A stretch of 64,000 nt of DNA from a virus. Taxonomy: Duplodnaviria > Heunggongvirae > Uroviricota > Caudoviricetes. The notes under the pieces were generated by a model. That model did no database searches, had not been told where the DNA came from, and worked only from the letters and a program-made list of their open reading frames with translations. The stretch is taken from the IMG/VR virus record IMGVR_UViG_2718218304_000001, positions 32,001 to 96,000 of that record, one strand, 5' to 3'. A program made the translations under genes and the position numbers. Below are positions 20,765 through 63,695 of this stretch, one piece after another. Numbering within the stretch: the first letter of the stretch is position 1; each line of letters begins with the position of its first letter.

Positions 20765-21574
20765 TCATCCAATAGTGTACTCCGCGACAAACTTCTTAAC
20801 GATCGGTGATTCTTCGTTCAATGTTAGATTTCCACCGTCTCTAACGGCAATTCCTGTCGCTGGAAATACAGCCATCATTTGCCCAGCCTGAGTTGACGCA
20901 GTGTTAAGCGGATACGGTTTTTCTGGATTGCTCATTAAAGCAATCTTAATACTATTACTTGTAGCCTTCTTTTCTGTGAGAAGGTGTCTCATGGAAATTA
21001 CCGTGTAAACACTAATATCTGGACCTCCGCTAAACCAATTAAGAAGGTTTAATATCTTATCCTTTGCTTTGACAGGCGCGTTATCGTAAGCGTCTAAGAA
21101 AATATCTTTTTCTAAGCCCGCTTTATTGAAAAACGAATCATCTTTATCACTTAAAGTAAAACGAGGACCTCTTGCAGTACGAGCTTTTTTATTTGTATTG
21201 CTATCATTTGACTGTTGAACTTTTAATTCATCATTAACCTCAACACACTCTTCAACCTCAATAAATCCCAATTGTTCTGGCTCGTTTTCGGCAGCTTCAA
21301 CACTTTCAGCGTTAATTACGTTTATAGGCTCATGCGCTAACTCCAACTCATTTAAAGCAGAGCTGAAATCACCTGCTTTTTCTTCATTGAAAAGTTCTTC
21401 GGCAACATCATCAGAACTCATGGCTACGCCAGCATCTAGGCCGAGCAGCAGATCGTCAATATCATCAGTATTTTCAACCTGTGCAGCTTTTTTTACTGGT
21501 TCATCAAGTGATTGCAACATGGCTGTCAGCTCGTCCAGATCATCATTTGTCATTACATTTTCAACCGAACTCAT
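20765..21574 (-). CDS. hypothetical acidic protein
   Basis: ORF track; Asp/Glu-rich N-terminal half. Confidence 0.4.
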   Translation of the reverse strand: MSSVENVMTNDDLDELTAMLQSLDEPVKKAAQVENTDDIDDLLLGLDAGVAMSSDDVAEELFNEEKAGDFSSALNELELAHEPINVINAESVEAAENEPEQLGFIEVEECVEVNDELKVQQSNDSNTNKKARTARGPRFTLSDKDDSFFNKAGLEKDIFLDAYDNAPVKAKDKILNLLNWFSGGPDISVYTVISMRHLLTEKKATSNSIKIALMSNPEKPYPLNTASTQAGQMMAVFPATGIAVRDGGNLTLNEESPIVKKFVAEYTIG

Positions 21575-21732: not shown

Positions 21733-22290
21733 TTACACAATTTCAGAGGGTAATTTAAAAAATCCGTACTTATTACGTGCCTTAAAGAAGCATTGCATCA
21801 TTAAGTTTGTGTCATATAAGGCACTATGTGCTTTGGCATGATCGTATATAAAGCCAAGAGAGAAGGCCAACTCTTCAAGGCGGGGACGTTTACCGTCTTC
21901 TGTGGCCCACAATCCCGATAACATAGTATCTATAACAGGAACTTCTGGCAGTCTTACTCCATACCCTGAAAACTCGTGTCGAATAAATGGTATATCAAAT
22001 GCTTCGCCGTTATGAGCAACCCACACACTACATGCCCCCATATAAGCGCCAATTTCGCTGGCATGATTTGACAACAAAGGTTCAGCTGCGAGCTGTTCCA
22101 ATGAAATGCCATGAACGGCTTGAGCTTTCGGATCTATGTTTCTGCGAGGGTTAAAACGCATCTCCAGACTATCAATATGTCTCTGTGTCTCCAGTTCATA
22201 GCGGGTAATTGCGATTTCAATAATTTTATGACCAGCAAGGAAATCCAGTCCCGTAGACTCGATATCGATGCCTGCAACAATCGTTGTCAT
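21733..22290 (-). CDS. DEDDh 3'-5' exonuclease (DnaQ/epsilon-like)
   Basis: Exo I DIESTG, Exo II HNGEAFDIPF, Exo III HSALYDT. Confidence 0.7.
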   Translation of the reverse strand: MTTIVAGIDIESTGLDFLAGHKIIEIAITRYELETQRHIDSLEMRFNPRRNIDPKAQAVHGISLEQLAAEPLLSNHASEIGAYMGACSVWVAHNGEAFDIPFIRHEFSGYGVRLPEVPVIDTMLSGLWATEDGKRPRLEELAFSLGFIYDHAKAHSALYDTNLMMQCFFKARNKYGFFKLPSEIV

Positions 22291-22299
22291 CAGAACTCC

Positions 22300-22719
22300 T
22301 TACAACTTCTTAGCGCCCTTAAGTAGTGCGCTACGTACAAATTGAGCCGCTTTTTTCAAAGTTTCTTCACTGGTTTCACAGACAATCGGATCTTTCCACT
22401 TACCTGACACAGTGTTGAGAATATTGATTTGGTTGCTATCCAGACAAACAGAGATATAAAGCACTGTGCCACCAGCCAGCATCAAATGCATAGGAAACAG
22501 AGGCTTTTTACTGCCTTCACTGAACTGAGACATGGCGATGTTAATGGCTTCACCCACTTGTGTACCAACAAGCCCCTGCGCAGTTTCGAATATGGCACGA
22601 ATAGCCAGACGAGCCTCTCGATCGCTCATAAGCGACCGGGAATGTTCGTCCGCTACACGAATCAAAGCCTCTGTTGTTTTCCGATCCAGTTCATCTTCAA
22701 GCAACATTTCACTAAACAT
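22300..22719 (-). CDS. hypothetical protein
   Basis: ORF track only. Confidence 0.3.
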   Translation of the reverse strand: MFSEMLLEDELDRKTTEALIRVADEHSRSLMSDREARLAIRAIFETAQGLVGTQVGEAINIAMSQFSEGSKKPLFPMHLMLAGGTVLYISVCLDSNQINILNTVSGKWKDPIVCETSEETLKKAAQFVRSALLKGAKKL

Positions 22720-22780: not shown

Positions 22781-23425
22781 CTAATGAACGGTCACTCGGC
22801 CACAGAACCGGTTTTCTATCTTTTCTACAGCGTTATCTAGCATTCTCATCACTGATCTGGCTCTTGCTTCAACCGTGCGATATCGGTTGGAAACGACGAA
22901 GGTTTGCAGATCTCCCCTTTGCGGATGCAGGTGAATTTTTGTCAGTTCCCCGCACATCAACGCATCAATACGAGCGACATACAGACGGTCTAATGATGCT
23001 CGTTGTGATCGCAAGTAATCTCGCTCTGAGAGAGCGACTCCCGGGCGTAAGCCAGCAATGGCGTTAAAGTTTGAAATAGCAGTTTTGTGGCAAAACTTTT
23101 CGATATCGAGGGCTAACTCAATACACCGATCTTCATTTGTATGGCCGACCAAATCCAACGTGTAGGCCATAACATCAGCAGGTGTGCGATCGATAACAAA
23201 GCCTTCAACACCACGCGTAAGTAGCTCTATATGCTTTGCTATTTCCATTTGAATCTGAAGCCGCTCATATAGAGGCATAGAATCACCTACTCGAACACCG
23301 AGGCGGCTCATCAAACTTCCGACACCAGCATCCACGTAAGGGATTCCGTAATGTTTGTCGATATATTTAGCCAGGGTTGTTTTCCCACTGCCCTGAGCAC
23401 CAGTGATCCCAATCCGGTAATCCAT
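22781..23425 (-). CDS. P-loop NTPase, putative nucleotide kinase
   Basis: Walker A GAQGSGKTT near the N-terminus; sits among nucleotide-metabolism genes. Confidence 0.45.
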   Translation of the reverse strand: MDYRIGITGAQGSGKTTLAKYIDKHYGIPYVDAGVGSLMSRLGVRVGDSMPLYERLQIQMEIAKHIELLTRGVEGFVIDRTPADVMAYTLDLVGHTNEDRCIELALDIEKFCHKTAISNFNAIAGLRPGVALSERDYLRSQRASLDRLYVARIDALMCGELTKIHLHPQRGDLQTFVVSNRYRTVEARARSVMRMLDNAVEKIENRFCGRVTVH

Positions 23426-35814: not shown

Positions 35815-35925
35815 GTATGCTGTCAGCGGTAATTGATAGTCTGTCAGCGGTTCACCGTATGCTGCCAACTGTTTTTGGTATTCTGTCAGCGGCAAATCAA
35901 GTATGCTGTCAGCGGTTGAATGACA
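35815..35925 (+). repeat. upstream iteron cluster (~5 copies, consensus TATGCTGTCAGCGGT)
   Basis: Direct repeats read in sequence immediately 5' of the rep start. Confidence 0.7.
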
Positions 35926-35936
35926 AAGGTGTCCAC

Positions 35937-37031
35937 ATGTCCACAAAAAATAAAAAAGGTAAAAATAACAAAGAAGTAGAAGATAATCTCGACAACTTTG
36001 AAGAAGGTTCCCTTGAATTGTACACAGGGGAACTTGTCCCTAATAGCAACAATACAGTCCAACCAATTGCGTTGATGCGGCTGGGATTGTTCGTGCCCAC
36101 GCTCAAGGGGACAAAATACAGCAAGCGTAACAAGCCAAATGAGATCGATGCTTCAAAGGAGCTTGTCCAGCTCGAAGTAGCCCGTTCTGAAGGCTATTCC
36201 GATATCAAGATAACCGGTCCTCGTCTCGACATGGATCATGATTTCAAAACGTGGGTGGGCGTTGTGCGTTCGCTGGCAGAATACGGCGAACCTAATGGTC
36301 GTGTCGAGTTAAGCATCACGAAATTTGCGAAGTTTTGTGGCTATCCATCGTCACAGATCCGCAAAACACTCCGCGACCGGCTTACAAACAGTCTTTTGAA
36401 GATCATGCGTACAACTCTGTCTTTCCAGAGAACGTATGAAGAAAAGAACGTCGACGGCTCTAACAAGATCTCGCTTCTGATGGTGCACCTCATCAATAGC
36501 GTGGACTACAACGAGCAGAAAGATACGGTGGTGTTCTATGCAGAACCGAAGCTGGCCGAACTATATCGCTTTGACCATAAGGTTCTTTTGCAGTTAAAGG
36601 TTATCAATAAGCTACCACGCAAAGAAACAGCACAGGCTCTGTACACCTTCATCGAAAGTCTTCCAACCAAGCCTGCGCCGGTATCGCTTGCTCGATTGCG
36701 TGCGCGACTCAATTTGAGTAGCAGGAATGTCAGCTCGCAGAATCAGACTATACGTAACGGCTTAAAAGCTCTCCAAGATTTGGGCTATCTCGAATACAGC
36801 GAGATTAAGCGTGGGCGGTCGATCTATATCCAGATTCACAGCCGCAATCCAAAACTTAAAGTCGCACCGCCAAAACCTGAAGACATCGAACCCAAAAAAC
36901 CAGATGAGAAAGCCGGGGAAATTGATGCTAAACAGAACATTATCAACAAGATAACTGAACTTTCGCAGAATTTGACGCCTGAAAATATCAAGATGATTGA
37001 GATCCTTTCCAATAGTCTCAAACTGCTTTGA
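35937..37031 (+). CDS. plasmid-type replication initiator (Rep), iteron-binding
   Basis: Basic N-terminus; flanked on both sides by iteron arrays (P1 RepA-like organisation); start refined to the ATG at 35937 after AAAGGTG. Confidence 0.6.
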   Translation: MSTKNKKGKNNKEVEDNLDNFEEGSLELYTGELVPNSNNTVQPIALMRLGLFVPTLKGTKYSKRNKPNEIDASKELVQLEVARSEGYSDIKITGPRLDMDHDFKTWVGVVRSLAEYGEPNGRVELSITKFAKFCGYPSSQIRKTLRDRLTNSLLKIMRTTLSFQRTYEEKNVDGSNKISLLMVHLINSVDYNEQKDTVVFYAEPKLAELYRFDHKVLLQLKVINKLPRKETAQALYTFIESLPTKPAPVSLARLRARLNLSSRNVSSQNQTIRNGLKALQDLGYLEYSEIKRGRSIYIQIHSRNPKLKVAPPKPEDIEPKKPDEKAGEIDAKQNIINKITELSQNLTPENIKMIEILSNSLKLL

Positions 37032-39209: not shown

Positions 39210-41549
39210 TTACTCTTCTACTGACTCGGTGGGGTTGTCTTTTGCTCTTCGGTCGTCGATTGCCTGCAAAGCCGCAATGATTTCAGCCAGTGGCTTCTCC
39301 CGATACATCTCGACGATCTGCGATTTGGTGTATTTCTTGTCACCAATTTCAACTCGCCCGCTGGCGTTCTTTGGCAGGTATCCTTCTTCCAGCATGTACT
39401 CGACGAGCGATTCGATAACGTCGAGGCCACGAGTAGGATCGAAGTAGAATTTCCAGGTGCATTTGCCATACGGTGGTGCAACTTTGTTTTTGATGCATTC
39501 TGCGCCTACGTCCTGGCCGATCTTCTCTTTACCATCCTTCATCACCGATGCACCAAGACGGATACGTACAGAAGCGTAGAACTTCGGTGAATCTCCACCT
39601 GGCGACGTAGTAGGGTCGCCAAACATTACACCGATTTTTGTGCGAACCTGATTCAAGAAGATGATGCAGGCGTTGTATTTGCGTGCCCACAAAGCCAGAG
39701 TAGGGAAGTTCGCACTCGTCGCACGAGCCAGTGCCGTATTGTCGTTCATGTTTAGCTGATCTTTGTCTTTGGCAGTGCCTTCAGCCATCTTTTCGAACTT
39801 CTCGGCTTTGGAGTTCGGAACCATAGACGCAAGAGAGTCAGCCACGATACAGATAGGTGCTGATTCGGGGATAAGCTCTTCATCACGAACCAATTTAAGT
39901 ATTGTGCCGATCAACTCTACAGAGTCTTCGAAGGTATCTGGCTGCTTGTATACCCACTGACCGTCGTCTTCGTCGGCGTTCAGTCCGTTCGCTACCGCCA
40001 GACCAACGTCGAAACTGTTTTCGTGGTCAAGGAATACGGCCAGACCATCCTGTTTTTGTGCTGACACCATCGCAGCCGTCGCGAGGAATGTGTTGTGGCT
40101 GATAATCCCGTTAGACCAGAAAGAGTGTGTTTCCGGCATCGCTACGTCGAACGTTGGTGCTTCACCTTCCTCAATAGCCACGACTTCGTCGTAGAACAAG
40201 TTAGAGTCAATTACCGCTGCCAGTTGTGCAAACAGATGCTCGTTAAAACGATTCTTTCTGCCAATGAAGGAGACATAGATTTCTCGCAGTTTGTCTATTC
40301 CGACACGATCGCCGCGGCCAATAACGTGATCTACCAGAACGTAGTCTTTACGAGAGGTCTTGGTGAGTGACTCGTAGAGTGATTTCACTAAGCCGCTGAT
40401 GTGCGGAACGTAGCCTAAATAAGTGCGGTCAAAACTAATGTCCCGTTTGGTTGCCACTGCTAAACGAGCCGGAGACTCGAACCCAATCGTTGACAGGAAA
40501 AGGTCGTAGTTAGAGCCACTGAATGACAGCCGGTAATATATGTTTTTATAACCTGCGACGTGTTTTTCAGAGATAGTTGACGTAATCCCCAGATTCAGGA
40601 GCATGAGGCGAATTTGCTGTAGCAGCAGCCCACTCGCGCTCACAACCTCAATGCAGCGACCATCATTGACGTGGCATTCCAGCTCAAAGTAGCCGCGAAG
40701 GAATGCAATTTGAGCCTCGCTATTGGCGCGACGCACACTCAACGGAACCTGCTTGCCAGCAGCTTTCTCATACTCCAGACCATATTCTTTAAAAAGCAGC
40801 GAACGCACCTCTTTGCTAAACAGCACATGGTCTTCCGAGCCGTTATGTTTTCTCGTAACTGGCATCTTGTCTGATACCAGCGAAATGAGGCGGTAGTACT
40901 CATCCTTGATGAAAGGATCTGTGTTAGAAAAATTCACTGAATTTTCAGAGGCCACGTATCCGTCAGCAATTAAATAGCCCATCAGTTTTGCGATATTGGC
41001 ATCCAGGTGCTGATCGCCGAATTGATGTGTGCCAACCATTGAAGGAATCGTGTCGCCTACACTGATTTTTTCAGCATGTCGCCAGACGACATTACCTAAG
41101 TCGTCAACCACACGGATTGGGTGACGGAACGTAGCCTCGATATAACCGCCTGATGCCAGCTTAATACGCTTGAATTTGCGACGGTTGTTCCATGTCAGGT
41201 GTGAGGTCTTCTCTATCACGCCATTTTCATTGATGAGTCCAACGTTATGCTCTACATCGCGAGTAGTGCATGTCGCTTTGTACCCTTCAATCTCAAACAA
41301 CTCTTTCACTGTTACCATTCCACGCTCCGTCAGCAGCATGGTGTCTGCGGTAACACATTTCCCCGCGCTTGGTGGCCCGAATACTTCTACGATACGACCA
41401 CATGGGAAACCGCCATCGTAACGACCGGAAATAGCTTTGTTTAACGGAGGAAAGCCTGTGTCAATCCAATGAGTTACTTTCTGAATTTCGTCGTTGCTAC
41501 CGATTTTCTTTTTCAGAGCAAGTGCCAGTGCGGATTTTCCTTTTGCCAT
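39210..41549 (-). CDS. RecA/UvsX-like recombinase interrupted by an intein
   Basis: Exteins total ~357 aa and read GRIVEVFGPPSAGK|T...FLNQVRTKIGVMFGDPTTSPGGDSPKFYASVRIRLG, paralleling RecA (GRIVEIYGPESSGKTT...[32 protein letters not shown]). Confidence 0.8.
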   Translation of the reverse strand: MAKGKSALALALKKKIGSNDEIQKVTHWIDTGFPPLNKAISGRYDGGFPCGRIVEVFGPPSAGKCVTADTMLLTERGMVTVKELFEIEGYKATCTTRDVEHNVGLINENGVIEKTSHLTWNNRRKFKRIKLASGGYIEATFRHPIRVVDDLGNVVWRHAEKISVGDTIPSMVGTHQFGDQHLDANIAKLMGYLIADGYVASENSVNFSNTDPFIKDEYYRLISLVSDKMPVTRKHNGSEDHVLFSKEVRSLLFKEYGLEYEKAAGKQVPLSVRRANSEAQIAFLRGYFELECHVNDGRCIEVVSASGLLLQQIRLMLLNLGITSTISEKHVAGYKNIYYRLSFSGSNYDLFLSTIGFESPARLAVATKRDISFDRTYLGYVPHISGLVKSLYESLTKTSRKDYVLVDHVIGRGDRVGIDKLREIYVSFIGRKNRFNEHLFAQLAAVIDSNLFYDEVVAIEEGEAPTFDVAMPETHSFWSNGIISHNTFLATAAMVSAQKQDGLAVFLDHENSFDVGLAVANGLNADEDDGQWVYKQPDTFEDSVELIGTILKLVRDEELIPESAPICIVADSLASMVPNSKAEKFEKMAEGTAKDKDQLNMNDNTALARATSANFPTLALWARKYNACIIFLNQVRTKIGVMFGDPTTSPGGDSPKFYASVRIRLGASVMKDGKEKIGQDVGAECIKNKVAPPYGKCTWKFYFDPTRGLDVIESLVEYMLEEGYLPKNASGRVEIGDKKYTKSQIVEMYREKPLAEIIAALQAIDDRRAKDNPTESVEE
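40092..41357 (-). mobile_element. intein (422 aa) with LAGLIDADG homing endonuclease, inserted in the P-loop of the RecA-like gene
   Basis: Starts with Cys right after GPPSAGK, ends ...IISHN followed by Thr; internal LMGYLIADGYV and FLRGYFELECHV blocks. Confidence 0.75.
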
Positions 41550-41551
41550 GA

Positions 41552-41824
41552 TCAGGCTCCTTTTGTTTCGTTGATTCGTTTTAAAGCGGCGGATTCGTCG
41601 AATACAATCGCATCGTGATTAAGGAGTCTGGATACACGAGCGAGGATTTTTACGACCTGCTCGCTGACTAATCCAAACTCGCGATCTGTCGCTTTCATTC
41701 CGGCAGCGCCTAGAATTGACGGCAGTGCGATGACAGCGTACTCACCGTGATAAAAGACAATCTCTTTTGCCAGTTGGGTGGGGGTGGTTGTAGCGCCATT
41801 AATAATCGATTTAAGCATTAGCAA
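41552..41824 (-). CDS. hypothetical protein
   Basis: ORF track only. Confidence 0.3.
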   Translation of the reverse strand: MLMLKSIINGATTTPTQLAKEIVFYHGEYAVIALPSILGAAGMKATDREFGLVSEQVVKILARVSRLLNHDAIVFDESAALKRINETKGA

Positions 41825-42813
41825 TACCTTTCGAATGGAAGAACAAACACTTCAAGGTCTTCAAGGAACGAACGGAAATTCAGCTCGTAGCACAGTTGCT
41901 CGAATGCTTTCACGTCACGATTGCCTTTGATTGTTTCGATTTCGGTAGGCGGAAACTTCGTCTCAATCAGGTTCATTAGCGTGATGTTTCTCTTGAACGC
42001 TTCGAGCATTCGACAGCCTGTTTTCTCGTTGAAGGCATTCTTCGCTAGTTTGTTGAAGGCGGTCTTATGGCGTCCTTTGTCAACCACGATTGAGCCGTCG
42101 TTGATGCCGCGTACCATCGTTGCGACACTTCCCCATTCATGCAGCAGCTCTTTCGCACCGCCAGCACCAATGCCACCAACACCGCTAATGTTGTCCGATT
42201 TATCGCCTTGTAATGCTTTTGCTTCCAAAAATGCGCGAGGAGTAGCGAATCCTGTCAGCTCCGCAAATTGCTCAAAATTAACCTGCTTGTTTTTGGCGTC
42301 TTCGCGCAGGCTTACCCAGCTTACGTTTTCGCGAACTAACTGAAGCCAGTCGCTATCGCCTGTTAACAGATAGATGTGTTCAACGGTTGGCTGCGGTGCC
42401 ATGCGGGATACCAGCAGCCCGGCCAGATCATCCGCTTCTGCATCTTTTGCAATGAGTTGGGTAACTCCAAGCGCGGTCATCATTTTGAGGATGTATGGCT
42501 TCTGGATAGCAAAGCCTTCCTTCATCTTTTTCATATCAGGATCGTCGTCGCGATTTGCCTTGTAGTCCGGGTAAAAGTCGCGACGCTTGTCACTAAATCC
42601 ATCCCAAAGAATCATAGGTCGGGCATGGAGGATGGAGGCATAACGACGGACGTTCTTAACAAAGCCGAAAGCAGCCTGTACTTCCATTTCGCCGTTGTGC
42701 AATTTGTCAGATTGTTGGTGGTAATAACCCAGGCTATTGCCATCTACGAAGAGATAATTCACCGGTACATTCCTTCCAAAAAGTAAGGCGTCCGTAGACG
42801 CCTTACTGGTCAC
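41818..42813 (-). CDS. 5'-3' exonuclease / flap endonuclease (PIN-like)
   Basis: FVDGNSLGYY, LTGDSDWLQL, LQGDKSDNISGVGGIG motifs. Confidence 0.8.
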   Translation of the reverse strand: MTSKASTDALLFGRNVPVNYLFVDGNSLGYYHQQSDKLHNGEMEVQAAFGFVKNVRRYASILHARPMILWDGFSDKRRDFYPDYKANRDDDPDMKKMKEGFAIQKPYILKMMTALGVTQLIAKDAEADDLAGLLVSRMAPQPTVEHIYLLTGDSDWLQLVRENVSWVSLREDAKNKQVNFEQFAELTGFATPRAFLEAKALQGDKSDNISGVGGIGAGGAKELLHEWGSVATMVRGINDGSIVVDKGRHKTAFNKLAKNAFNEKTGCRMLEAFKRNITLMNLIETKFPPTEIETIKGNRDVKAFEQLCYELNFRSFLEDLEVFVLPFERYC

Positions 42814-42822
42814 GTAATGGGA

Positions 42823-43851
42823 TTACAGAGAGTCCAGCTCTCTCAGTAGGTCATCCAGACCTTCATCTTCCGTCGCAGATGCGGTTGCTACAGATGTCGC
42901 TGCGACTGCTTCAGACTCTTTGACTGATACGGCAACGGCAGCGGAACTTGCCTCTGGTTTAAATTCAGTTTCAACGGCACGGAGGATTTCTTCATCAACC
43001 AGACTGGTTGGTTCAGAAGCCGGTGTGTGCGCGGTTGCTACAGCCGTCGCTCCTTCTGTATGACCAGTGACAGAGCCAAATCCAGGTAGTGCCGCAGCCG
43101 ATGTTTTCGCGGTTGAGGAAATTGCTGGTGCAGATGCTGCGGCAGTTGGTGCAGCGATGCCAATCAGACGACCCATAGTGCGAACTGTCGACAGAAGACG
43201 AGTTTCATCAGCCTGATTTGCGTATGCGATCAGATCATGCTGGGTGTTCCAGAATTTATCTTCGATATCGCCTTTGTAGACTTTACGCTTAGGCGAGACG
43301 TCATATTTGGTATCGCGACCAGAGCCAGTACGTTTAATCAGGAATGCGTAGCCTTCCTCTTTGCTCAGTGGATTGCCGATATCATCAGCGATGTCTTCGG
43401 TGATTGCTTTGCAGATATCATCGAATACAGTAGACGGCAGCTCGATTAACTGGCATTTCTCAGCATCTGCGAAATCCTCACGAGCAGAAAGAATGCCGTT
43501 GACCAGGTAGCGAGGAGTGGCACGCATTTGACCGATGCGTTCTTCCATTGCTTTGTTACCCTTGTGACGAGCGCGACCTTCCATCACCATTTCGCATAGC
43601 TGACAAGCGCGACCATGAGTATGTTGCTCACAAATATAAGCGATGGTTGCTTCTTTACCTTCCTCGTTCTGATACTTAACGTAGTGCATACCGAAAGTCT
43701 GGAAGAACTTACCGTTTGGGTCGTCCTTATTCGGGAAGATACGGATATAGTTGACGCCATCTTTTAAGCGAGTCAGATCAACGTTGTTACCACGTTTGGC
43801 GGCAATGTCTTCACGAGTTTTGTTAAGCAAATCAAGTAATGTCTTAGACAT
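42823..43851 (-). CDS. ssDNA-binding protein, T4 gp32-like (putative Zn site, acidic C-tail)
   Basis: C..H.H...C..C cluster (YICEQHTHGRACQLC) and a C-terminal acidic tail (EDEGLDDLLRELDSL). Confidence 0.5.
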   Translation of the reverse strand: MSKTLLDLLNKTREDIAAKRGNNVDLTRLKDGVNYIRIFPNKDDPNGKFFQTFGMHYVKYQNEEGKEATIAYICEQHTHGRACQLCEMVMEGRARHKGNKAMEERIGQMRATPRYLVNGILSAREDFADAEKCQLIELPSTVFDDICKAITEDIADDIGNPLSKEEGYAFLIKRTGSGRDTKYDVSPKRKVYKGDIEDKFWNTQHDLIAYANQADETRLLSTVRTMGRLIGIAAPTAAASAPAISSTAKTSAAALPGFGSVTGHTEGATAVATAHTPASEPTSLVDEEILRAVETEFKPEASSAAVAVSVKESEAVAATSVATASATEDEGLDDLLRELDSL

Positions 43852-46351: not shown

Positions 46352-49300
46352 TTACTTATTTATTGTCTCCGCGATATCAGCCAGAATGGCCTCCAGTCGC
46401 TCTCCTTCTTCCGGTCGGAAGTACAGGATATTCGGGTTAAATCCGTAGAAGACGGTTGCATCAAGCTCTGGGAAGTACTCCTTACGACCAATCAGATCTG
46501 ATGGTTTACTCTTATTGTTAAATAGTGCGGTTGAACGACTACCACACGTCAAAATGTAGGTTGGTCGTACAAGATTAATTTCTTCCCGCATAAAGTCTGT
46601 GAACTGGCCTATCTCGTCTTTGGTATAGTCTTTCTCTTTGTCCTTAACCTTCTTACAAACACCCGTGACATAAAGATCGCCCATGCGCAGATCTCCAACT
46701 GTCAGTAGTTTTGCCTTAAAGTCGTCGTATCCGTTCTCCATGAAGTAGCCGGTACGAGCGTCATTGCCGTTCGCATTGTCCAGAATGATCATGATTTTGG
46801 GTTTAATACCAATAGTCGGGCGTATCAACTCCTCACCCAAGCCCATTTCATCCGCCATACGTGTCATGAGTACGTTGATTTCGGCAGAACGCTTAGGATT
46901 CATTTCGAACGGACGTGATGCTTTAACAGCGTCAATGATGAGATTGCCCATCAGCTCAGCCTGGTCGCGCAGTCGTTCAGGATCAGTTGCTGGCAGACTG
47001 CCTGGCTCAATTGACGCAAAAGCCCCTACTTTATGAAGCGACTCGCGTACACGACTGTTACATGCACGCTTCTCGACCGCTTCATCGAATTGTGCCACTG
47101 ACTCGAATTTGCCACCAACTTTCTCACGCGCACGCATAATTGCCTGACAACCATTTTCAGAACAGCCTTTCACAGCAGAGAATGGCGCATACAGTGCCTG
47201 ACTGCCGTCTTCGAGTGTGCGGATCTCAATTCGGTTAGATGACACATTAACGTCTGGTGGCAATACGCGAATGCCATAGGTCAGCGCATCCTTCACCAGC
47301 CCCTGATGCTTATCCTCGCCCAGAATGGTGAGCGCAGCTGCGAAGAACTCAGCAGGGTAGTGCGTCTTTAGCCACATAGACTGATAACTGATTAAAGAAT
47401 AAGCAACGGAGTGTGATTTATTGAAGGCATATCCACCGAACTTCTCAAAGGCGTCCCATATTTCTTGGGCTTTTTCCTTACTGAGACCTTCTTGTTCAGA
47501 GACGATCTCCACGTAGTCTATGCCGTCACTAATAGCCTCGCTGTAGCTTCTACGCTTACCGTCTGAGCAATCCAGTTTTGCGTGTTTGTGAACCTCTACA
47601 GTACCTCCATTTTTGAGTGACAGTGTCACCCAGCCTGCTTGTGCTCGTTCTACAAAATCGCTGCCGATCGCTTTCATCTTATCCATGTTCTTTTTACCGA
47701 TAGCGGAACGCAGAGCGTCTGCTTCGGCCATAGAGAACCCGGCAAGTACTCGGGAACTTTGCATGATTTGTTCCTGATAGAGCAAAACACCATTAGTCTC
47801 CCGGGTGACTTCCTCAAGACGCGGATGAATTGAATGTGGAGCCATGAAGCCTTTGGCCACGGAGACATAGTCGTCCAACATGCCGGATTGGATCGGGCCA
47901 GGTCGGAAGAGTGCGGTCGTGGCGACAACGGTTTTAAAGCTCATTGGCTCAATGCCACCGCCTAGATCTTTAAGCAGCTTGCGCATGGGGCCGGACTCCA
48001 GCTGGAATACGCCCTGTGTATACCCTGCAGCAAAACCATCCAGCACCTTGCGATCTTCAAGAGAAATGGCATCAAGATTGATATCTTCACCTGTGTTCTC
48101 TTTTATGTAGCGTTTTGCACTATCGAGCAAATCGAGAGTTGCCAGGCCAAGCACGTCCAGCTTAATTAGGCCCATAGCCTCGCAGTAACGCTTATCAAAT
48201 GCGATACAACGCGCGTCACCACGGCGCTCAACCGGTGTACGTTCTGTCAGAGGAACACCTGCTACAATCATCCCTGCCGCATGTCTACCAAAGCCACGCA
48301 TAAGGCTTTGTAACTTGCAGGCTGCATTGAATGCATCAGGATATTTTGTTGCGTATTTGTCGAGACTTGCCAGTTGTTCGCGCAGCTCTTCCAATGGAAG
48401 GCTATCATCCTCGACGTTCTTCAGTTCTTTTGATACCGCCATATCTGCGGACTCCACACCATAAATACGAGCGGTGTCACGTAGTGCAGAGGCTGCGCCC
48501 AGGTAGGTGAAGTTCGGAATGCCTGCAACGTAATCTTCGCCGTAGCGTTCATTCAGATACTCGATCACCTCATGGCGACGTGCCTGGCTGAAGTCCAAAT
48601 CCGCATCTGGCAAGTCGAGACGCTCAGGGTTGATGAAACGTTCAAACAGAAGACCGTGACGGATAGGGTCGACGTTGGTTATGCCTATGCACCATGCCAC
48701 CAAAGAGCCAGCGGAGGAACCACGACCAGGCCCGACAGGAATGCCAGTTTCACGGCTGTGATTCATCAGATCGCGTACCATCAGGAAGTAACCACAAAAT
48801 CCCAGGCGAGTAAGCGTGTCCATTTCGTACTTAAGTCGCTCAACATAAACCCTGTTCTCAGAAGCCGGTGGTGTGTATCCAAACTCTTTTGTGGTAAGAC
48901 GTTTACGCAGCCCTGCAACAGCCAGTTTCATCAGCGTTGCAGGTTCGTCGTCTGCCATCTTGGGCAGTGCTGGTGGCAATTCATGCCAGCGCCATGTACA
49001 GGCTTCGATAATGGAGTCCTGCGTTGTTGAGGCCATTGCAGCTGTTACCGGCACATCCATGCGAACGGAGAAGGCTTTAAGCGCCTCAAGGAGATGGCGG
49101 CGACCATTGACGGCGTTATCTCGCTGGTGGGGTATACGCAGACGATGCGGCTGGTCGATTTTTATGTTGTTCGTAACCATGTGCGCAATGTCTTTAATGT
49201 CTGCATCGTCGATCGATTCGTAATAAGCGGGATAGAACGCTACTGGCTCTATTTTCAGTGCGCTGGCTACTTTCATCGCTCGGACGTTAATCTGGTCGTA

Positions 49301-49858
49301 GAATGGGGTAGGGTGCGGATAAACCACGCTATAGAAGTTGTCTTTCCCGCCCGCTGTAATCAGTGAGCTTATGATTTTTGCAAAATCGTTGCGTTGGAAC
49401 ACGCTACCGATGTCGGAAGTGAGCAGGATGATGTTGCCTTTGGCATATGTAGAAACCAACTGTTCGAGCGAGAGACGCGGTACAAAGTAGAACTGTTCTC
49501 GTGTGTTGGCCACCGTCATTAGTTCGCAGATGTCGCGATATCCTTGCTCATTTTTAATTAGAGCGGTAAACGAGTAGTTACGTCCCCGCTCTAATGATTC
49601 CATACATCTCATAGATTCTTTAGCAAGTTTAGCCCGGTGCTCGTATGTGGGATCATCAACGATATTTAGTTTCACACCACAAATAACCGCCATGTCGTCA
49701 CCAGCGGCACGTTGTAGTGGAATAACACTCGCAATATTCATGCTATCTGCTGAAATTACAGCGGTGTAGCCAGCTTCTCTGGCAATCTTCACCGCGTTTT
49801 CTGCTTTTAGAGCCGACTCCCCAAGTGAGAAGTCAGTTCGAACCATCAGTGCTTTCAT
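46352..49858 (-). CDS. DNA polymerase III alpha-type (DnaE-like) replicative polymerase with PHP domain
   Basis: GPGRGSSAGSLVAWCIGIT and FNKSHSVAYSLISYQSMWLK signatures; the C-terminal ~190 aa does not resemble the host DnaE C-terminus. Confidence 0.85.
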   Translation of the reverse strand: MKALMVRTDFSLGESALKAENAVKIAREAGYTAVISADSMNIASVIPLQRAAGDDMAVICGVKLNIVDDPTYEHRAKLAKESMRCMESLERGRNYSFTALIKNEQGYRDICELMTVANTREQFYFVPRLSLEQLVSTYAKGNIILLTSDIGSVFQRNDFAKIISSLITAGGKDNFYSVVYPHPTPFYDQINVRAMKVASALKIEPVAFYPAYYESIDDADIKDIAHMVTNNIKIDQPHRLRIPHQRDNAVNGRRHLLEALKAFSVRMDVPVTAAMASTTQDSIIEACTWRWHELPPALPKMADDEPATLMKLAVAGLRKRLTTKEFGYTPPASENRVYVERLKYEMDTLTRLGFCGYFLMVRDLMNHSRETGIPVGPGRGSSAGSLVAWCIGITNVDPIRHGLLFERFINPERLDLPDADLDFSQARRHEVIEYLNERYGEDYVAGIPNFTYLGAASALRDTARIYGVESADMAVSKELKNVEDDSLPLEELREQLASLDKYATKYPDAFNAACKLQSLMRGFGRHAAGMIVAGVPLTERTPVERRGDARCIAFDKRYCEAMGLIKLDVLGLATLDLLDSAKRYIKENTGEDINLDAISLEDRKVLDGFAAGYTQGVFQLESGPMRKLLKDLGGGIEPMSFKTVVATTALFRPGPIQSGMLDDYVSVAKGFMAPHSIHPRLEEVTRETNGVLLYQEQIMQSSRVLAGFSMAEADALRSAIGKKNMDKMKAIGSDFVERAQAGWVTLSLKNGGTVEVHKHAKLDCSDGKRRSYSEAISDGIDYVEIVSEQEGLSKEKAQEIWDAFEKFGGYAFNKSHSVAYSLISYQSMWLKTHYPAEFFAAALTILGEDKHQGLVKDALTYGIRVLPPDVNVSSNRIEIRTLEDGSQALYAPFSAVKGCSENGCQAIMRAREKVGGKFESVAQFDEAVEKRACNSRVRESLHKVGAFASIEPGSLPATDPERLRDQAELMGNLIIDAVKASRPFEMNPKRSAEINVLMTRMADEMGLGEELIRPTIGIKPKIMIILDNANGNDARTGYFMENGYDDFKAKLLTVGDLRMGDLYVTGVCKKVKDKEKDYTKDEIGQFTDFMREEINLVRPTYILTCGSRSTALFNNKSKPSDLIGRKEYFPELDATVFYGFNPNILYFRPEEGERLEAILADIAETINK

Positions 49859-50042
49859 GTGTTTTTACCTTTATGGTTTTTTTGATTTTGTCATTGGGGA
49901 AGCCTACGAACTTCCCATACATCGAAATCGCAACTTCTTTTGCTGATTGGTGACAATCGGGCTTGTCTGGACATACCAGACAAGCCTTACCAGTTTCAGA
50001 AGCCGCGATAAGAGAGCCGAAACATCCTTTACGCACGATCAA
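49833..50042 (-). CDS. small Cys-containing hypothetical protein
   Basis: 69 aa with several Cys; overlaps the polymerase start by 26 nt. Confidence 0.25.
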   Translation of the reverse strand: MIVRKGCFGSLIAASETGKACLVCPDKPDCHQSAKEVAISMYGKFVGFPNDKIKKTIKVKTHESTDGSN

Positions 50043-51274
50043 CCAAATATTTTTTGAACAACTTCACGAGCCGCTTGTGCAGAAGCTGAAGGGAGTTTGT
50101 TAATGAAAGAACGCTCAATACCTGTCACAAAGTCGCCTCGCATCATTCCAATCTTGGCCGACAACAAAAGTTCACGAGGGCCAATTGGCTGACTGATAAG
50201 GTGTTCTTCGTATCCATCGCGAACGATACCGGCAAACTTAACCATCTTTTCTGCGTATTCATCCACGATGCCGGCATTTATCAACATGTTGATCTCTGCC
50301 TCTTTGCTCATGTATTTCACATTCGAAACGATGCCAAAACGCGAAAAGTTCGCGGCGTTCTGGATGTTTGTACCCTGGTACAAGCCGGTTTCATCACCAG
50401 ATCCGTTCGTGTTGCCAGTGCCAATGAAAGCAAACCGGTCATGCGGAGTAATGCGACGCCATTCTGGAGTCGCCTCTTTGATGACCAACGCTTCACCTTC
50501 CAGCACTGGCTGATACACGCCAAGAATCTGTGGAAACGCAAAGTCGTATTCATCCGCGAGGTAAACCCAGCCATGCTTCATTGCGAGCGCAAGCAAGCCA
50601 GGCTCGAAATACGTAGAGCCATCACGCGCCAGAATTTGCCCCGTAACATGTGCCTCTTCCATTGATGCTGTATGTTGGGCACGGATCAACGGACGATTGA
50701 GCAAAGCACATAGCTGTGTAGGCAATGTCGATTTGCCTGTTCCTGCATGACCCCACAAATAGCCAGGTATGCCAAGTTCAAGCATCATGAAAATATCTTT
50801 GATCAGTTCGAAGTCGCCATATACGTAGCCCTTCTTCACTTCTGGAACGAACTCTGGATACGGCGTATTGACGTTGACGCTAACCATGAGCGGCGTCCCA
50901 CGTTTTGTTCCGAGTTCTTCCACCGTTACGTTTAGCAGTTCGTGAGCTGCGACCAGATCTGTCTTGTACTCAACTGTGCCTGTGTAGCCAGGGCTACTGG
51001 TCAAGCCAGAAGATTTGGCCATTTCGCTTTTTTGCTCGGCACGTTTAGCTTGAATTGCATCAAGTGCCTTTTTCGATAGCGTTGGTTCATCTGGAAACTG
51101 CGTTGTGTACATTTTCAGTACGGTGTCAGGATCGGCATCTTTTACTGACTCAGGAATGCCCTCGCAATTACCATTGGCTACATGGGACTTAAAATAGTGA
51201 AATGATTTGCCGCACCACTTGCAAACAAGGTAATCAGAATGATTTTTTTCATTTTGCAGTGCAGTAGTCGTCAT
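50039..51274 (-). CDS. MoxR/CobS-like AAA+ ATPase with N-terminal Cys motif
   Basis: Walker A GHAGTGKST, Walker B-like YLADEYD. Confidence 0.6.
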   Translation of the reverse strand: MTTTALQNEKNHSDYLVCKWCGKSFHYFKSHVANGNCEGIPESVKDADPDTVLKMYTTQFPDEPTLSKKALDAIQAKRAEQKSEMAKSSGLTSSPGYTGTVEYKTDLVAAHELLNVTVEELGTKRGTPLMVSVNVNTPYPEFVPEVKKGYVYGDFELIKDIFMMLELGIPGYLWGHAGTGKSTLPTQLCALLNRPLIRAQHTASMEEAHVTGQILARDGSTYFEPGLLALAMKHGWVYLADEYDFAFPQILGVYQPVLEGEALVIKEATPEWRRITPHDRFAFIGTGNTNGSGDETGLYQGTNIQNAANFSRFGIVSNVKYMSKEAEINMLINAGIVDEYAEKMVKFAGIVRDGYEEHLISQPIGPRELLLSAKIGMMRGDFVTGIERSFINKLPSASAQAAREVVQKIFG

Positions 51275-51369: not shown

Positions 51370-53478
51370 TCACTTCAAAATGATACGAGATAGTTCAGTA
51401 ACTACAGATGAACCAAGACTATCAACGCTCGTTACCAGGGCATGATTTGAGTAAAATCTCTCCGGTGCGTCAGTCATGATGCCAATTGCCATCAAATCAA
51501 TGTCAGTCTGCGTTTCAATTTGCTTCGCAACCGAACGCAAATGAGCGTCAAAACCTCTCCCAACAGCCCACGGCTCGCCATCGCTCAGAACAAGCATGAT
51601 CTTCCTGTCCTCCATGCGACCGGAAAATAACGATGCAAGGCTGGCTATGCTTTCACCATCCACGTTATTAAGAAGTGGGAATGTGTAGCCTACGCACCCC
51701 ATACGTGAGCGAACTTCGCGAGAATTTACCTTTTCATTCCAATTTTTGATGATAGGTAGCATTAAAGATTCAAAGCGAGAGAACTCATACTTGACAGCCT
51801 TAAGTTCTCCTGCCGCCATATGACTACCAAATGTAGTGAAGCCGGTGATAATGTTGGGAACATTTATTCGATCAAGGGCATCGGCGATGGTATATGCACT
51901 TGCAAGAGCCAATTGTATCGTTATACCCCTCATTGAACCTGATAAATCAATCACTTGTTGAACACAGGCGTTAACGGCTTTAGATTCTTCTTTTTTACGA
52001 AACACGCGATCATCATTCATTGCTAATCTGTAGATACTAGAACCATGAATGCGCCCCCGACGCTGGCCCGGTATAAACTGAACTCTGTTTCTGCTTGCTA
52101 TTGCTCGCTCCAGGTCTTTTGCCAGCGTCGACGAAACACCTGACGAAAGATGCTTTTCAATATATTTGTCGAAGAGCTGGTTGCCTTCAGGAACGATGCG
52201 ATAGCGGCTGATTGGACATCCTCCTAAATCAATATCGGAGAATGTTTTAATAAGCCGTTTGATATGGGCTTCTGCCTGATCAATCGAGCCGATGAAGTCG
52301 TATGAGCGATTGTATGGCCTGTATTCGCTTTTCGAGCTTTCTGTTAACTCGCTTTTAATCGTTTCGGATAGAGCATCTTCTGTCATGCCTCCGACTTCAT
52401 CTTCTATGCTATCCAGCTCCTCTAAAGCCTCTTCCAGACTCATTTTTGACGGAGTTGGGATATCTGAAGAGCCGTCTTCTGTCGTTTTTCTTTTTTCGTG
52501 GTCAGCGGTAAATGATTCTGACACCGCGTTATCAGAAGCATCAGAATCTGATACCTCTTTATCATTTTCTGTATCATCGAATATTGTTTCTGATGATTCA
52601 GAATTATCTGAATCATCATCGTCGTTATTATCATGTTTGTGCTTACTGTGTGATTCTGATTTGATAGATTTGTGATTATCTAACGCTGAGGGTGTCTCAT
52701 GATCTTCGTTGTCTTCATTGTTTTCTCCAGAGGCATCCGTCTGGTCAGCGTCTGAAGGATCGGAAGTTTTTCCCGGAGCTGACTCCTTACCTTTGCTTTC
52801 ACTTTCACTGTCTTTGAGGATCTTAGCTATGATCGCAGCCACCTTTACACAATCCTCGGTGCAAGACATGTTACGCACGGCCACATCGATACCATGTTCT
52901 TTTAATAATGAAATTGGTTTCTCAATGACAGGCCAATATTCATCCATGAAATCTACGAACGGTGCTTGGCCATCCCAGGCTCTTACAACCGGACAGAGAA
53001 AGAAGTTTAGAAAAAGCGCGCGCTGATCTTTGCCACAATAAGCAATAGCCTCTGAAGCCTTTGGTTTAAAGACTTTTTCGATTATAAGGCGCTGAGTTGC
53101 CATCAGATTACGTCTTGTTCCGTTAAAGACCTGACCCATTTTTCGCTCGATGAACACGTCTTCTAAGGCATTCCATAGCGACCAGGAAGGAACGCGTCCT
53201 TTTTCTCTCATTTTGTTGGACACACGAATATCGGTAAACAAAATGTGAGCAACCTCATGATCGAGAAATCCGCGCACAGCATTCATCAATGCCGGTGTTG
53301 CGTTATCCGGGATTGATGGGATGTTTACGAGAATTGGCTCTCCATCATCGTTATAGCGTACATAAGCGTCGTCCCCTCGTTCTGCAACAGGGATGTTTTT
53401 ACCTGAAAGGAGAGCGACTACTCGTTTTACACTGTCACGGAAGTCCTGAACCTCTTTGATGGAACGTTTTTTAGACAT
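51370..53478 (-). CDS. CobT-like protein with C-terminal von Willebrand A domain and acidic low-complexity linker
   Basis: MIDAS-like DLSGS motif near the C-terminus; long Asp/Ser/Glu-rich middle segment. Confidence 0.55.
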   Translation of the reverse strand: MSKKRSIKEVQDFRDSVKRVVALLSGKNIPVAERGDDAYVRYNDDGEPILVNIPSIPDNATPALMNAVRGFLDHEVAHILFTDIRVSNKMREKGRVPSWSLWNALEDVFIERKMGQVFNGTRRNLMATQRLIIEKVFKPKASEAIAYCGKDQRALFLNFFLCPVVRAWDGQAPFVDFMDEYWPVIEKPISLLKEHGIDVAVRNMSCTEDCVKVAAIIAKILKDSESESKGKESAPGKTSDPSDADQTDASGENNEDNEDHETPSALDNHKSIKSESHSKHKHDNNDDDDSDNSESSETIFDDTENDKEVSDSDASDNAVSESFTADHEKRKTTEDGSSDIPTPSKMSLEEALEELDSIEDEVGGMTEDALSETIKSELTESSKSEYRPYNRSYDFIGSIDQAEAHIKRLIKTFSDIDLGGCPISRYRIVPEGNQLFDKYIEKHLSSGVSSTLAKDLERAIASRNRVQFIPGQRRGRIHGSSIYRLAMNDDRVFRKKEESKAVNACVQQVIDLSGSMRGITIQLALASAYTIADALDRINVPNIITGFTTFGSHMAAGELKAVKYEFSRFESLMLPIIKNWNEKVNSREVRSRMGCVGYTFPLLNNVDGESIASLASLFSGRMEDRKIMLVLSDGEPWAVGRGFDAHLRSVAKQIETQTDIDLMAIGIMTDAPERFYSNHALVTSVDSLGSSVVTELSRIILK

Positions 53479-62027: not shown

Positions 62028-63013
62028 CCTGCTGGGCAAAAAAACCATGGAAAACGAGCTGCTGAAAGAAGCCGTTGAATATGGCCGACAAAAAAAGTGG
62101 ATAGCGCACGTGCCCTTGTTGCCGGAGGATGGTGAATGAGCCTTGTCAGTCGTTGCCTCCGGGTCTCACGTGCGCAACTGCATGCCATGGCCCGTCGGTC
62201 GAAGGGCTGGCAGGATCGTCGGTGCAAGCGCAAGCCTGATGATACTGAAGCGCTGGCTCGTATCCATACCGTTATCGACGATCTGCCCACCTATGGTTAT
62301 CGTCGTGTATGGGTACTGCTGCGCAGACAATCAGAAACTGACGACATGGCGGTGATCAATGCCAAACGCGTATACCGCATCATGCGTCAGAATGCGCTGC
62401 TGCTTGAGCGTAAACCGGCAATACCGCCCTCGAAGCGGGCGCATAGAGGGAAAGTGGCCGTTGGAGAAAGTAACCAGCGGTGGTGCTCCGACGGCTTCGG
62501 GTTCAGCTGTGATAACGGTGAAAAACTGCGGATCACGTTCGCGCTGGACTGTTGCGAGCGCGAGGCACTTCACTGGGCAGCAAGTACCGGTGGATATGAC
62601 AGTGAAACCGTGCAGGACGTCATGCTGGGTGCAGTAGAGCGTCGCTTCGGTAACAGGCTGCCGACATCCCCCGTTGAGTGGCTGACAGACAACGGTTCAG
62701 CCTACCGTTCTCATCAGACGCGTCAGTTCGCCAGAATGGTAGGACTGGAGCCAAAACATACGGCGGTACGTAGTCCAGAAAGCAACGGAATGGCGGAGAG
62801 CTTCGTGAAAACGATGAAGCGCGACTACATCAGTATCATGCCAAAACCTGACGGGTTAACAGCGGCAAAGAACCTTGCGGAGGCCTTCGAACATTACAAC
62901 GAATGGCATCCGCACAGTGCACTGGGATATCGTTCTCCACGGGAATATCTGCGGCGGCGAACCAGTAATGGGTTAAGCGATAAAAAGTGTCTGGAAATAT
63001 AGGGGCCAATCCA
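62028..63013 (+). mobile_element. IS2-like insertion sequence, 5'-truncated
   Basis: Only the last ~36 codons of the orfA equivalent remain ([24 protein letters not shown]...); full orfB; right end TGGATTGGCCCCTATATTTCCAGACA matches the IS2 terminal repeat as I recall it. Confidence 0.75.
62136..63002 (+). CDS. insD: IS2-type transposase OrfB (DDE)
   Basis: 288 aa, highly similar to IS2 InsD from memory (NQRWCSDGF...LTDNGS...[15 protein letters not shown]). Confidence 0.8.
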
Positions 63014-63143: not shown

Positions 63144-63695
63144 ATGAAACGTTCAATTATTGCGGCTACTGTATTAGCATCTCTTTTTATGAGCGCAGGA
63201 TCATTTGCAGCAGAAGGGAGTACAGAGGGTCAGTTAACTATTAACGGTAAAGTCACAGAGACTACATGTCAGTTCCTGAGCGGTAGTGAGAATACAACAA
63301 TTTCGATGAGCGAAATTGGTCGTGATCAATTTGAAAATGTAGAAGTTGGCTCCCCCGTTACCACTTATTCAAATACAACATCTTTACCACTAAAAGTTAA
63401 ATGTCCCGGAGAAAAAAAACCAAGAATTACCTTCTCCAGCACCCAATTTGAAGGAACGGGTTCAAATGTTACTCGCAATACTGGTGATGCTAGCGGTGTC
63501 GGTTTCGCTGTTTTTTTGGGGAAAGGTACTGATTCTAGCAAGCGGATTTCTGGTAATAGTCCTATTGAGTTAACATCAGCTACTAATAATGGTGAATATG
63601 AGTTGCATTTTACGGCGCAATACGCAAAAGCAGCTGATGATGTGAGTACTGGCGAAGTTAGTTCTGCGATAACAATGACCGTTGTAACAGATTAA
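63144..63695 (+). CDS. yehD: fimbrial major subunit (YehD-like, chaperone-usher pilin)
   Basis: Signal peptide MKRSIIAATVLASLFMSAGSFA and a pilin-like C-terminus; position matches the yeh operon next to mrp-metG in E. coli K-12. Confidence 0.6.
   Translation: MKRSIIAATVLASLFMSAGSFAAEGSTEGQLTINGKVTETTCQFLSGSENTTISMSEIGRDQFENVEVGSPVTTYSNTTSLPLKVKCPGEKKPRITFSSTQFEGTGSNVTRNTGDASGVGFAVFLGKGTDSSKRISGNSPIELTSATNNGEYELHFTAQYAKAADDVSTGEVSSAITMTVVTD

Follow-up and report, generated by a model that had tools for sequence, protein, structure and literature searches.

The C-family DNA polymerase encoded by the phage-plasmid analyzed here ends in a degenerate family 4 uracil-DNA glycosylase (UDG) fold, which takes the place that the OB and tau-binding domains have in E. 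coli DnaE1. We analyzed a 64,000-nucleotide stretch (the window; positions 32,001 to 96,000 of IMG/VR virus record IMGVR_UViG_2718218304_000001), which comes from an SSU5-group phage-plasmid (SSU5/pMT1/pHCM2-type lineage). It is 98% identical to, and largely collinear with, the SSU5-like phage-plasmid Escherichia phage Cyrano, and its right end shares ~99% identity with plasmids from E. coli, pYPE3-114k among them. That the polymerase combines a DnaE core with a family 4 UDG-type domain is, in our judgment, close to certain. The architecture is already known, because Timinskas et al. (2014; PMC3919608) described the same PHP-Pol3-(HhH)2-UDG variant ("DnaEX," PF03167) from plasmids found in Yersinia pestis and in Salmonella enterica; the present protein is an ordinary member from E. 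coli in which nothing essential differs. The 2014 account gives the architecture one sentence and contains no motif analysis, partner, or function. Our literature searches for characterization of a DnaE-UDG fusion returned only that description and no experimental work.

A family 4 UDG fold at the C terminus of DnaE

An earlier reading made from the letters of the window (the sequence-only reading) had proposed an element-encoded DnaE with PHP and catalytic core signatures. The open reading frame is real, encodes 1,168 amino acids (aa) that include the peptides quoted in that reading, and carries both signatures. It is 98.1% identical in nucleotide sequence to CYRAN_49, the "DNA polymerase III alpha subunit" gene of Cyrano, and phrog_405 ("DNA polymerase"; PHROGs) matches the protein over its whole length. 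The gene and its parts are as follows.

46352..49858 (minus strand): dnaE-type (C-family) DNA polymerase gene, 1,168 aa plus stop (open reading frame, Pfam, phrog_405)
48959..49858 (minus strand): PHP domain, residues ~1-300 (Pfam PF02811 at residues 6-175, 6.2e-13, above cut-off)
47639..48934 (minus strand): palm/thumb and fingers, residues 309-740 (Pfam DNA_pol3_alpha and DNA_pol3_finger)
47483..47635 (minus strand): ~50-aa beta-rich insertion in the fingers, residues 742-792 (alignment; AlphaFold2 strands at 743-789)
47006..47275 (minus strand): (HhH)2 duplex-DNA/beta-binding-domain region, residues 862-951 (Pfam HHH_6 PF14579, 3.2e-16)
46898..47005 (minus strand): linker, residues 952-987 (DSSP assignment and pLDDT of the AlphaFold2 model)
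46355..46897 (minus strand): degenerate family 4 UDG-like domain, residues 988-1168 (profiles, AlphaFold2, Foldseek)

Beyond residue 951, Pfam finds no canonical DnaE domain. The NCBIfam DnaE equivalog alignments end at about the same residue, with every score under its curated cut-off, and the only family that either library reports past this point is UDG. In hhalign, a profile built from the C-terminal domain reached a probability of 0.08% against residues 911-1160 of E. coli DnaE (OB plus tau-binding). Because of these results, we conclude that the last ~180 to 215 residues are not an OB/tau-binding region. The sequence-only reading was therefore correct in finding this C terminus unlike that of host DnaE, and sensitive profile comparison does not align it with standard DnaE domains. 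A MAFFT alignment of the same region with E. coli DnaE was forced and uninformative, and we discarded it; hhalign sees no relationship.

The domain that the earlier reading had left unnamed is identified as a degenerate family 4 UDG by a domain search, and several independent lines of sequence and structural evidence concur. The C-terminal fragment on its own has a sub-threshold Pfam UDG match (0.019) and matches NCBIfam TIGR00758 UDG_fam4 with E=2.4e-8; its sequence matches in the PDB are family 4 UDGs only. Four orthologous polymerases with 43-59% identity (P0126, P0114, P0115, and P0104) exceed the gathering score of Pfam PF03167, P0126 with 48.1 bits (1.6e-12). A 13-sequence profile of the domain retrieves 4zbx (3e-8), 1ui0 (1e-7), 1l9g, and 1vk2 from the PDB, all within 3e-8 to 1.5e-7, and its alignments to 4zbx and 1ui0 stretch from motif A to motif B.

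Structure prediction agrees with the profiles. AlphaFold2 models residues 975-1168 with a mean predicted local distance difference test score (pLDDT) of 92.6 and a predicted template modeling score (pTM) of 0.90. Foldseek places 4zbx at the top of its PDB matches (E=9e-12, TM 0.74), and ranks 1-36 are all family 4 UDGs and UdgX. TM values to family 4 UDGs and UdgX, including TM0511 and Thermus UDGA, are 0.72-0.76 among the matches listed, and the lower ranks consist mostly of other UDG-superfamily enzymes (families 5 and 2) with a few other entries. A Foldseek search of the viral models in BFVD finds phage UDGs and A-family polymerases with a fused UDG-like domain (SP-15, T5-like Gostya9), and positions 469-631 of phrog_17 PolA also match the C-terminal domain. 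By both model and structural comparison, the domain thus has the alpha/beta fold of UDGs. The full-length AlphaFold2 model (pLDDT 82.8, pTM 0.70) delimits it to residues 988-1167.

Uracil-specific residues are lost and the pocket is conserved

Family 4 UDGs (Sulfolobus tokodaii 4zbx, Thermus UDGA 1ui0, Thermotoga TM0511 1l9g/1vk2) and UdgX share the fold over 163-214 alignment columns among the matches listed, with 16-19% sequence identity to the domain, and the profile alignments run collinearly. The family 4 enzymes differ from the domain at each signature motif. Motif A, GE(A/G)PG, is aligned to 1026-LDNAN-1030, where D1027 stands for the Glu. The uracil-reading T-N (..iTNvvKC..) is aligned to T1065-G1066, replacing Asn with Gly, and motif B, HP(A/S), is aligned to N1141-P1142 (NPN), replacing His with Asn. 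The four cysteines that ligate the 4Fe-4S cluster of family 4 are not present in the domain; Lys and Phe stand at the Fe-S cysteine positions of 4zbx, and the only cysteines in residues 985-1168, C1068 and C1105, are not conserved in the clade.

Searched exhaustively, 1.84 billion cluster representatives yielded 140 clusters with the domain. These are either polymerases of ~1,080 to 1,140 aa that carry it at the extreme C terminus or ~380- to 400-aa C-terminal halves of split genes. Word-indexed searches with the C-terminal fragment or its profile returned fragments only, and the diversity came from the full-length and representative searches. Conservation was counted over 152 aligned sequences, mostly 50%-identity cluster representatives plus a few close homologues.

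Position 1027 (acidic residue of motif A): D in 118, E in 6, N in 6
Position 1066 (Asn of the uracil-reading motif): G/S/A/T in 137 of 145 ungapped sequences
Position 1141 (His of motif B): N/S/T in 134 of 143, H in 6
T1065: T in 143
K1069: K in 136
P1142: P in 138

The substitution pattern is uniform across the alignment, and so in the fused clade the uracil-specific residues are gone and the pocket positions are constrained. Residues lining the former base pocket are conserved clade-wide, namely D1027, an acidic residue at 1033, T1065, K1069, and P1142. Canonical GEAPG, TN, and HP are almost confined to the weakest matches, which are short stand-alone proteins.

Distribution of the fused domain

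A tblastn search with the UDG-like domain found 25 phage records, comprising 24 complete genomes and one 13-kb fragment. By group, 12 are SSU5-like (Escherichia, Salmonella, Klebsiella), 5 are Pseudomonas syringae phages of the nickie type, and 7 are Rhizobium phages of the RHEph10 type. At least 968 PLSDB plasmids, from Klebsiella, Escherichia, Acinetobacter, Enterobacter, Yersinia, and Salmonella, carry the domain as well. Our version is 90.7% identical to that on Y. pestis plasmids of ~96 to 137 kb (e.g., NC_008120.1), which we take to be of the pMT1 type, and 89.7-90.7% identical to those on S. enterica plasmids. Some fragments have already been named "uracil-DNA glycosylase" by NCBI. Acinetobacter baumannii plasmids of ~110 kb (H139-H142) carry what may be either C-terminal pieces of a split polymerase or proteins that stand alone.

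The polymerase core, fingers insertion, and linker

The PHP domain, palm with its Asp cluster, thumb, fingers, and HhH region align with E. coli DnaE1 at 31% identity. The palm matches DNA_pol3_alpha (PF07733) at residues 309-571 (1.3e-73) and the fingers match DNA_pol3_finger (PF17657) at 574-740 (9e-46). When the protein is aligned to E. coli DnaE, the catalytic aspartates of the cluster PDADLDF (D418/D420/D422) and D555 do not vary. E. coli DnaE1 additionally has an OB fold, a tau-binding domain, and a C-terminal clamp-binding tail, whereas the present polymerase has none of these.

Active PHP domains carry an N-terminal HxH motif that supplies metal ligands. This motif is absent here, because "ALMVRT" stands opposite the E. 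coli sequence "HLRVHS" and no histidine precedes H74, the first in the whole polymerase. The PHP domain is probably without exonuclease activity, as judged from sequence, and E. coli DnaE1 likewise combines a PHP domain that is probably without this activity with a separate DEDDh exonuclease. A search of PDB sequences for all nine metal ligands of PHP domains with the N-terminal 301 residues gave only a partial alignment to the Taq enzyme, covering residues 86-244, so the assignment as inactive rests on the missing N-terminal histidines.

The ~50-aa insertion in the fingers is missing from E. coli DnaE and also from the relatives P0126 and P0114. In some Klebsiella relatives, among them Klebsiella phage GArcari-2022b (L007; 297..4549), a free-standing homing-endonuclease gene (NUMOD4/HNH_3, 233 aa) divides dnaE into open reading frames of 787 and 389 aa. 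The break falls within this insertion (residues 742-792; window 47483..47635), and its last beta-strand (782-789 in the contiguous model) would sit on the C-terminal piece. The model suggests that the two pieces may rejoin by strand complementation. Split dnaE genes are common, to judge from the many 380- to 400-aa C-terminal halves in the cluster-representative search.

In the AlphaFold2 model, the linker between the HhH region and the UDG-like domain consists of a helix (residues 960-969) and then a coil of 18 residues that is modeled with low confidence. The coil contains a conserved R-x-hydrophobic-x-x-D motif (R982, F984; column statistics over ~80 cluster representatives), which does not fit the clamp-binding consensus or known clamp motifs. 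A regular-expression search near the clamp-motif position gave 966-QAELM-970 as the only match of the Q-x-x-[LM] type. This segment resembles the E. coli clamp motif 920-QADMF-924; it forms a helix in the model, and its aligned counterpart is E. coli "RAALM," which lies upstream of that motif. The polymerase has no evident match to QADMF itself.

A separately encoded exonuclease co-occurs with the polymerase

A DnaQ-like exonuclease, correctly located by the sequence-only reading, is encoded away from the polymerase gene and is flanked by two conserved genes.

21733..22290 (minus strand): DEDDh (DnaQ/epsilon-like) 3'-5' exonuclease, 185 aa (Pfam RNase_T, phrog_192, motifs)
20765..21574 (minus strand): 269-aa conserved protein, phrog_5235, with no Pfam match
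22300..22719 (minus strand): 139-aa conserved protein, phrog_5373 (PHROGs scan only)

The exonuclease matches Pfam RNase_T (PF00929; 6e-22) and phrog_192, "DNA polymerase exonuclease subunit" (4e-51). Its best NCBIfam matches are Pol III epsilon models, all under their curated cut-offs. The DEDDh motifs are present as DIESTG (D9-I-E11), 93-HNGEAFD-99, and 155-HSALYD-160. An orthologue with 39-100% identity occurs in all 24 complete phage genomes that have the UDG-type DnaE, and in each of them its gene lies ~25 to 28 kb from the polymerase gene. This co-occurrence supports a functional pairing of the two proteins, and the 185-aa exonuclease is a plausible trans-acting proofreader because the polymerase PHP domain is without its N-terminal HxH metal ligands.

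PMC2528190 describes the C-terminal segment of E. coli epsilon (residues ~186-243) as binding the PHP domain of alpha. The present exonuclease is without this segment, because it ends at residue 185 and its match to the epsilon equivalog is limited to positions 6-167 of a 234-position profile. With the segment missing, association of the exonuclease with the polymerase is inferred rather than shown. The 269-aa and 139-aa flanking proteins are candidate accessory replication factors.

Other replication genes and the sliding clamp

The single-stranded DNA-binding protein (SSB) and recombinase named in the sequence-only reading are both confirmed by Pfam, and further replication genes lie in the window.

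42823..43851 (minus strand): gp32-like SSB (Pfam gp32, 1.4e-66)
41818..42813 (minus strand): 5'-3' (flap/FEN-type) exonuclease (Pfam 5_3_exonuc_N, 2e-24; 5_3_exonuc, 5e-12)
39210..41549 (minus strand): RecA-type recombinase with a LAGLIDADG intein inside (Pfam RecA, Intein_splicing, LAGLIDADG_3)
18394..19038 (minus strand): RNase H (phrog_531 "Rnase H," 3.7e-81)
35817..37031 (plus strand): RepA-type plasmid replication initiator (Pfam Rep3_N, 5e-9)
50039..51274 (minus strand): AAA_5 (MoxR/CobS-like) ATPase, directly upstream of dnaE
51370..53478 (minus strand): CobT-like VWA protein, upstream of dnaE on the same strand
22781..23425 (minus strand): P-loop protein (214 aa; phrog_168 "clamp loader of DNA polymerase," 4e-11), encoded two genes upstream of the exonuclease

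The Cyrano annotation and our scans of the window together give a gp32-like SSB, UvsY, a FEN-type exonuclease, an intein-containing RecA, RepA, and SbcCD, as well as RuvC, RNase H, ligase, RNR, ThyX, DHFR, and MazG. The Cyrano counterpart of the RepA gene is annotated "RepA Replication initiation protein," and the element's ligase is a putative assignment taken from the annotations of relatives. Around dnaE, the order is CobT-like VWA protein, AAA_5 ATPase, and dnaE, with gp32, FEN, and RecA further downstream. This order is kept in relatives with 43-54% polymerase identity (L008 and L009), in which both the gp32-like SSB and the FEN-type exonuclease are syntenic with dnaE. A functional tie of the AAA_5 ATPase and CobT-like protein to replication is possible. 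The closest complete plasmid encodes a DnaB-like helicase and a primase just past the point corresponding to the window's right end, after a fimbrial operon.

Neither our scans of the window nor the Cyrano annotation contains a recognizable sliding clamp or clamp loader, and the latter contains no DnaX/tau homologue for the element. The P-loop protein at 22781..23425 was considered as a clamp loader and rejected. A thymidylate-kinase PHROG (5e-10) and Pfam AAA_28 match it about as well as phrog_168 does; its P-loop is at residues 8-16, and its neighbors in this nucleotide-metabolism cluster are DHFR, PNK, ThyX, MazG, and RNR. These features suggest that its product is a nucleotide kinase.

The RecA protein is 779 aa long owing to its intein (Intein_splicing at 73-486, LAGLIDADG_3 at 279-356, and RecA at 484-703 in Pfam), and the RecA proteins of relatives are intein-free at 339-341 aa. 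Three database proteins (P0095, P0108, and P0125) join an N-terminal part of DnaE to a RecA Pfam match and may be recombinant or mis-assembled fusions.

Additional features of the window

Several parts of the window carry other genes. A complete type I restriction-modification system occupies 8531..14575 on the plus strand (HsdM, 520 aa; HsdS, 415 aa; HsdR, 1,038 aa). This stretch has no counterpart in Cyrano, whose match to the window begins at ~14663. Toward the right end are an insertion sequence transposase (62136..63002, plus strand; rve/rve_3/HTH_21) and a YehD-like fimbrial subunit (63144..63695, plus strand). As in pYPE3-114k, inserted DNA with a chaperone-usher fimbrial operon and a Phd/Doc toxin-antitoxin pair separates the ligase gene of the phage-plasmid backbone from its primase/helicase genes.

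A role proposed for the UDG-like domain

We lean toward an explanation, in which architecture and role are taken together, that makes this polymerase the replicative C-family enzyme of an SSU5/pMT1/pHCM2-group phage-plasmid. Its UDG-like domain would no longer excise uracil and would instead handle DNA as a module with a pocket, holding or inspecting the template strand before it reaches the active site. It would thereby take over the job of the OB domain of DnaE1, in parallel with the UDG domain of UDG-fused phage A-family polymerases, and it may add clamp-independent processivity. Since the PHP domain is without its N-terminal metal ligands, proofreading would come in trans from the co-conserved 185-aa DEDDh exonuclease, which, being without a C-terminal alpha-binding segment, would have to dock in another way than E. 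coli epsilon. Within the window, the element brings its own SSB, FEN-type exonuclease, RNase H, and RepA along with recombination proteins. The specific role as a template-handling module is drawn from analogy, and we hold it tentatively, at somewhat less than an even chance.

Kazlauskas and Venclovas (2011; PMC3201878) noted that, in viral polymerases of the C family, the region past the fingers "may include different structural domains." The analogy has several sources. The UDG domains of SPO1 and T5 PolA have been proposed as intrinsic processivity factors, with vaccinia D4 likewise cited (PMC3201878). Cryo-electron microscopy shows the UDG domain of SP15-like PolA on the 5' template, at a distance of five nucleotides ahead of the active site (bioRxiv 10.1101/2025.03.26.645540). 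Among phage A-family polymerases with UDG-like domains, the SPO1-like and SP15/YerA41/phiLo-like groups are active, the N4-like group is inactive, and the T5-like group has the domain as an extension. Like the present polymerase, these enzymes have a UDG fold attached covalently to a phage replicase, and the catalytic loss seen here parallels that of the N4-like group. However, the polymerases are unrelated (A family versus C family), the UDG domain is N-terminal there and C-terminal here, and, unlike the A-family fusions, the present polymerase is known from sequence and predicted structure alone. The poxvirus UDG (vaccinia D4/mpox E4) is a further UDG fold in a viral replicase, where it scans the template ahead and confers processivity (PMC3201878; bioRxiv 10.1101/2025.03.26.645540). 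Vaccinia D4 is a separate, active, family 1-type subunit that A20 bridges to a B-family polymerase, whereas the domain described here is fused, family 4-like, and degenerate. Compared with E. coli Pol III, the fingers carry an extra ~50-aa insertion and the partner exonuclease is without the alpha-binding tail of epsilon.

Several points weigh against the explanation that we favor. The domain is acidic (pI 5.1; K+R 26, D+E 30), unlike a general DNA-binding or processivity module, and its electrostatics do not support a simple basic DNA clamp. The acidic residue kept in motif A leaves scope for catalysis on another substrate. The partnership of exonuclease and polymerase is drawn from co-occurrence, and the polymerase may after all use the host beta clamp. 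The full-length model was judged by its summary statistics (pTM 0.70), and our literature searches found no biochemical data for any DnaE-UDG member.

The retained acidic residue is the starting point for one alternative, in which the domain is an active DNA glycosylase of changed specificity that scans the template ahead and excises lesions before they are copied. Such an enzyme would read some other base, or would read uracil by means of other residues. An Asp stands at the motif-A catalytic position in 118 of ~135 sequences, and conservation is concentrated on the pocket loops. Family 2 MUG/TDG enzymes, moreover, are active though they are without the motif-B His. SP15-like PolA enzymes with a fused UDG do excise template deoxyuridine, but the UDG domains of N4-like PolA have lost their catalytic residues (bioRxiv 10.1101/2025.03.26.645540). 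Here, nearly every member of the fused clade has other residues in place of the uracil-reading Asn and of the motif-B His, and all four family 4 Fe-S cysteines are absent; an abasic site made in its template would also be a hazard for a replicative polymerase unless bypassed. We consider an active glycosylase unlikely. A similarly low probability attaches to the proposal that the domain is mainly a protein-docking module in place of the tau-binding domain, tying the polymerase to the exonuclease, a DnaB-like helicase, or the gp32-like SSB instead of to DNA. Its most conserved residues line the former base pocket and form no obvious surface patch, and the polymerase-fused UDG domains that serve as precedents contact DNA. 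Such a module would nevertheless fit the location of the domain where the tau-binding C-terminal domain would be, the lack of a DnaX/tau homologue on the element, the acidity of the domain, and the co-occurrence of exonuclease and polymerase in 24 of 24 genomes. It would also give the exonuclease another docking site, which it needs because the alpha-binding segment of epsilon is missing.

The sequence-only reading had gone further and taken the polymerase, exonuclease, SSB, and recombinase to imply an autonomous replisome, that is, one that needs no host replication factor. This claim is overstated and holds up only in part. The element has DnaE, an epsilon-like exonuclease, a gp32-like SSB, FEN, RNase H, a putative ligase, RepA, and recombination proteins; its closest complete relatives also encode a DnaB-like helicase and a primase, and a polymerase that has lost the tau-binding domain could be independent of the host clamp-loader complex. 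The helicase and primase are not within the window, however, and full autonomy is only partly supported because no clamp or clamp loader is recognized, the sole "clamp loader" match being better read as a kinase. We rate complete autonomy as doubtful, though a little less so than the glycosylase and docking alternatives. A bolder form of the template-handling role would make the UDG-like domain a read-ahead template sensor or grip that gives a C-family polymerase processivity without a beta clamp or tau, with the tail-less exonuclease docked on it, in a minimal clamp-independent DnaE replisome. This version is speculative, and we think it improbable.

The SSU5-group polymerase extends the 2014 description by the clade-wide loss of catalytic residues with a conserved pocket, the co-occurrence of the exonuclease in 24 of 24 genomes, and the lack of a recognizable clamp or clamp loader. 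Recruitment of a UDG fold to replicases is now seen in A-, B-, and C-family systems. A C-family replicase that carries such a fold in place of the OB and tau-binding modules is a natural experiment on what those modules do. If the proposal of a clamp-independent DnaE replisome is true, this replisome would serve a very common family of enterobacterial phage-plasmids, Y. pestis plasmids of ~96 to 137 kb (presumably pMT1) included, as well as related Pseudomonas and Rhizobium phages.

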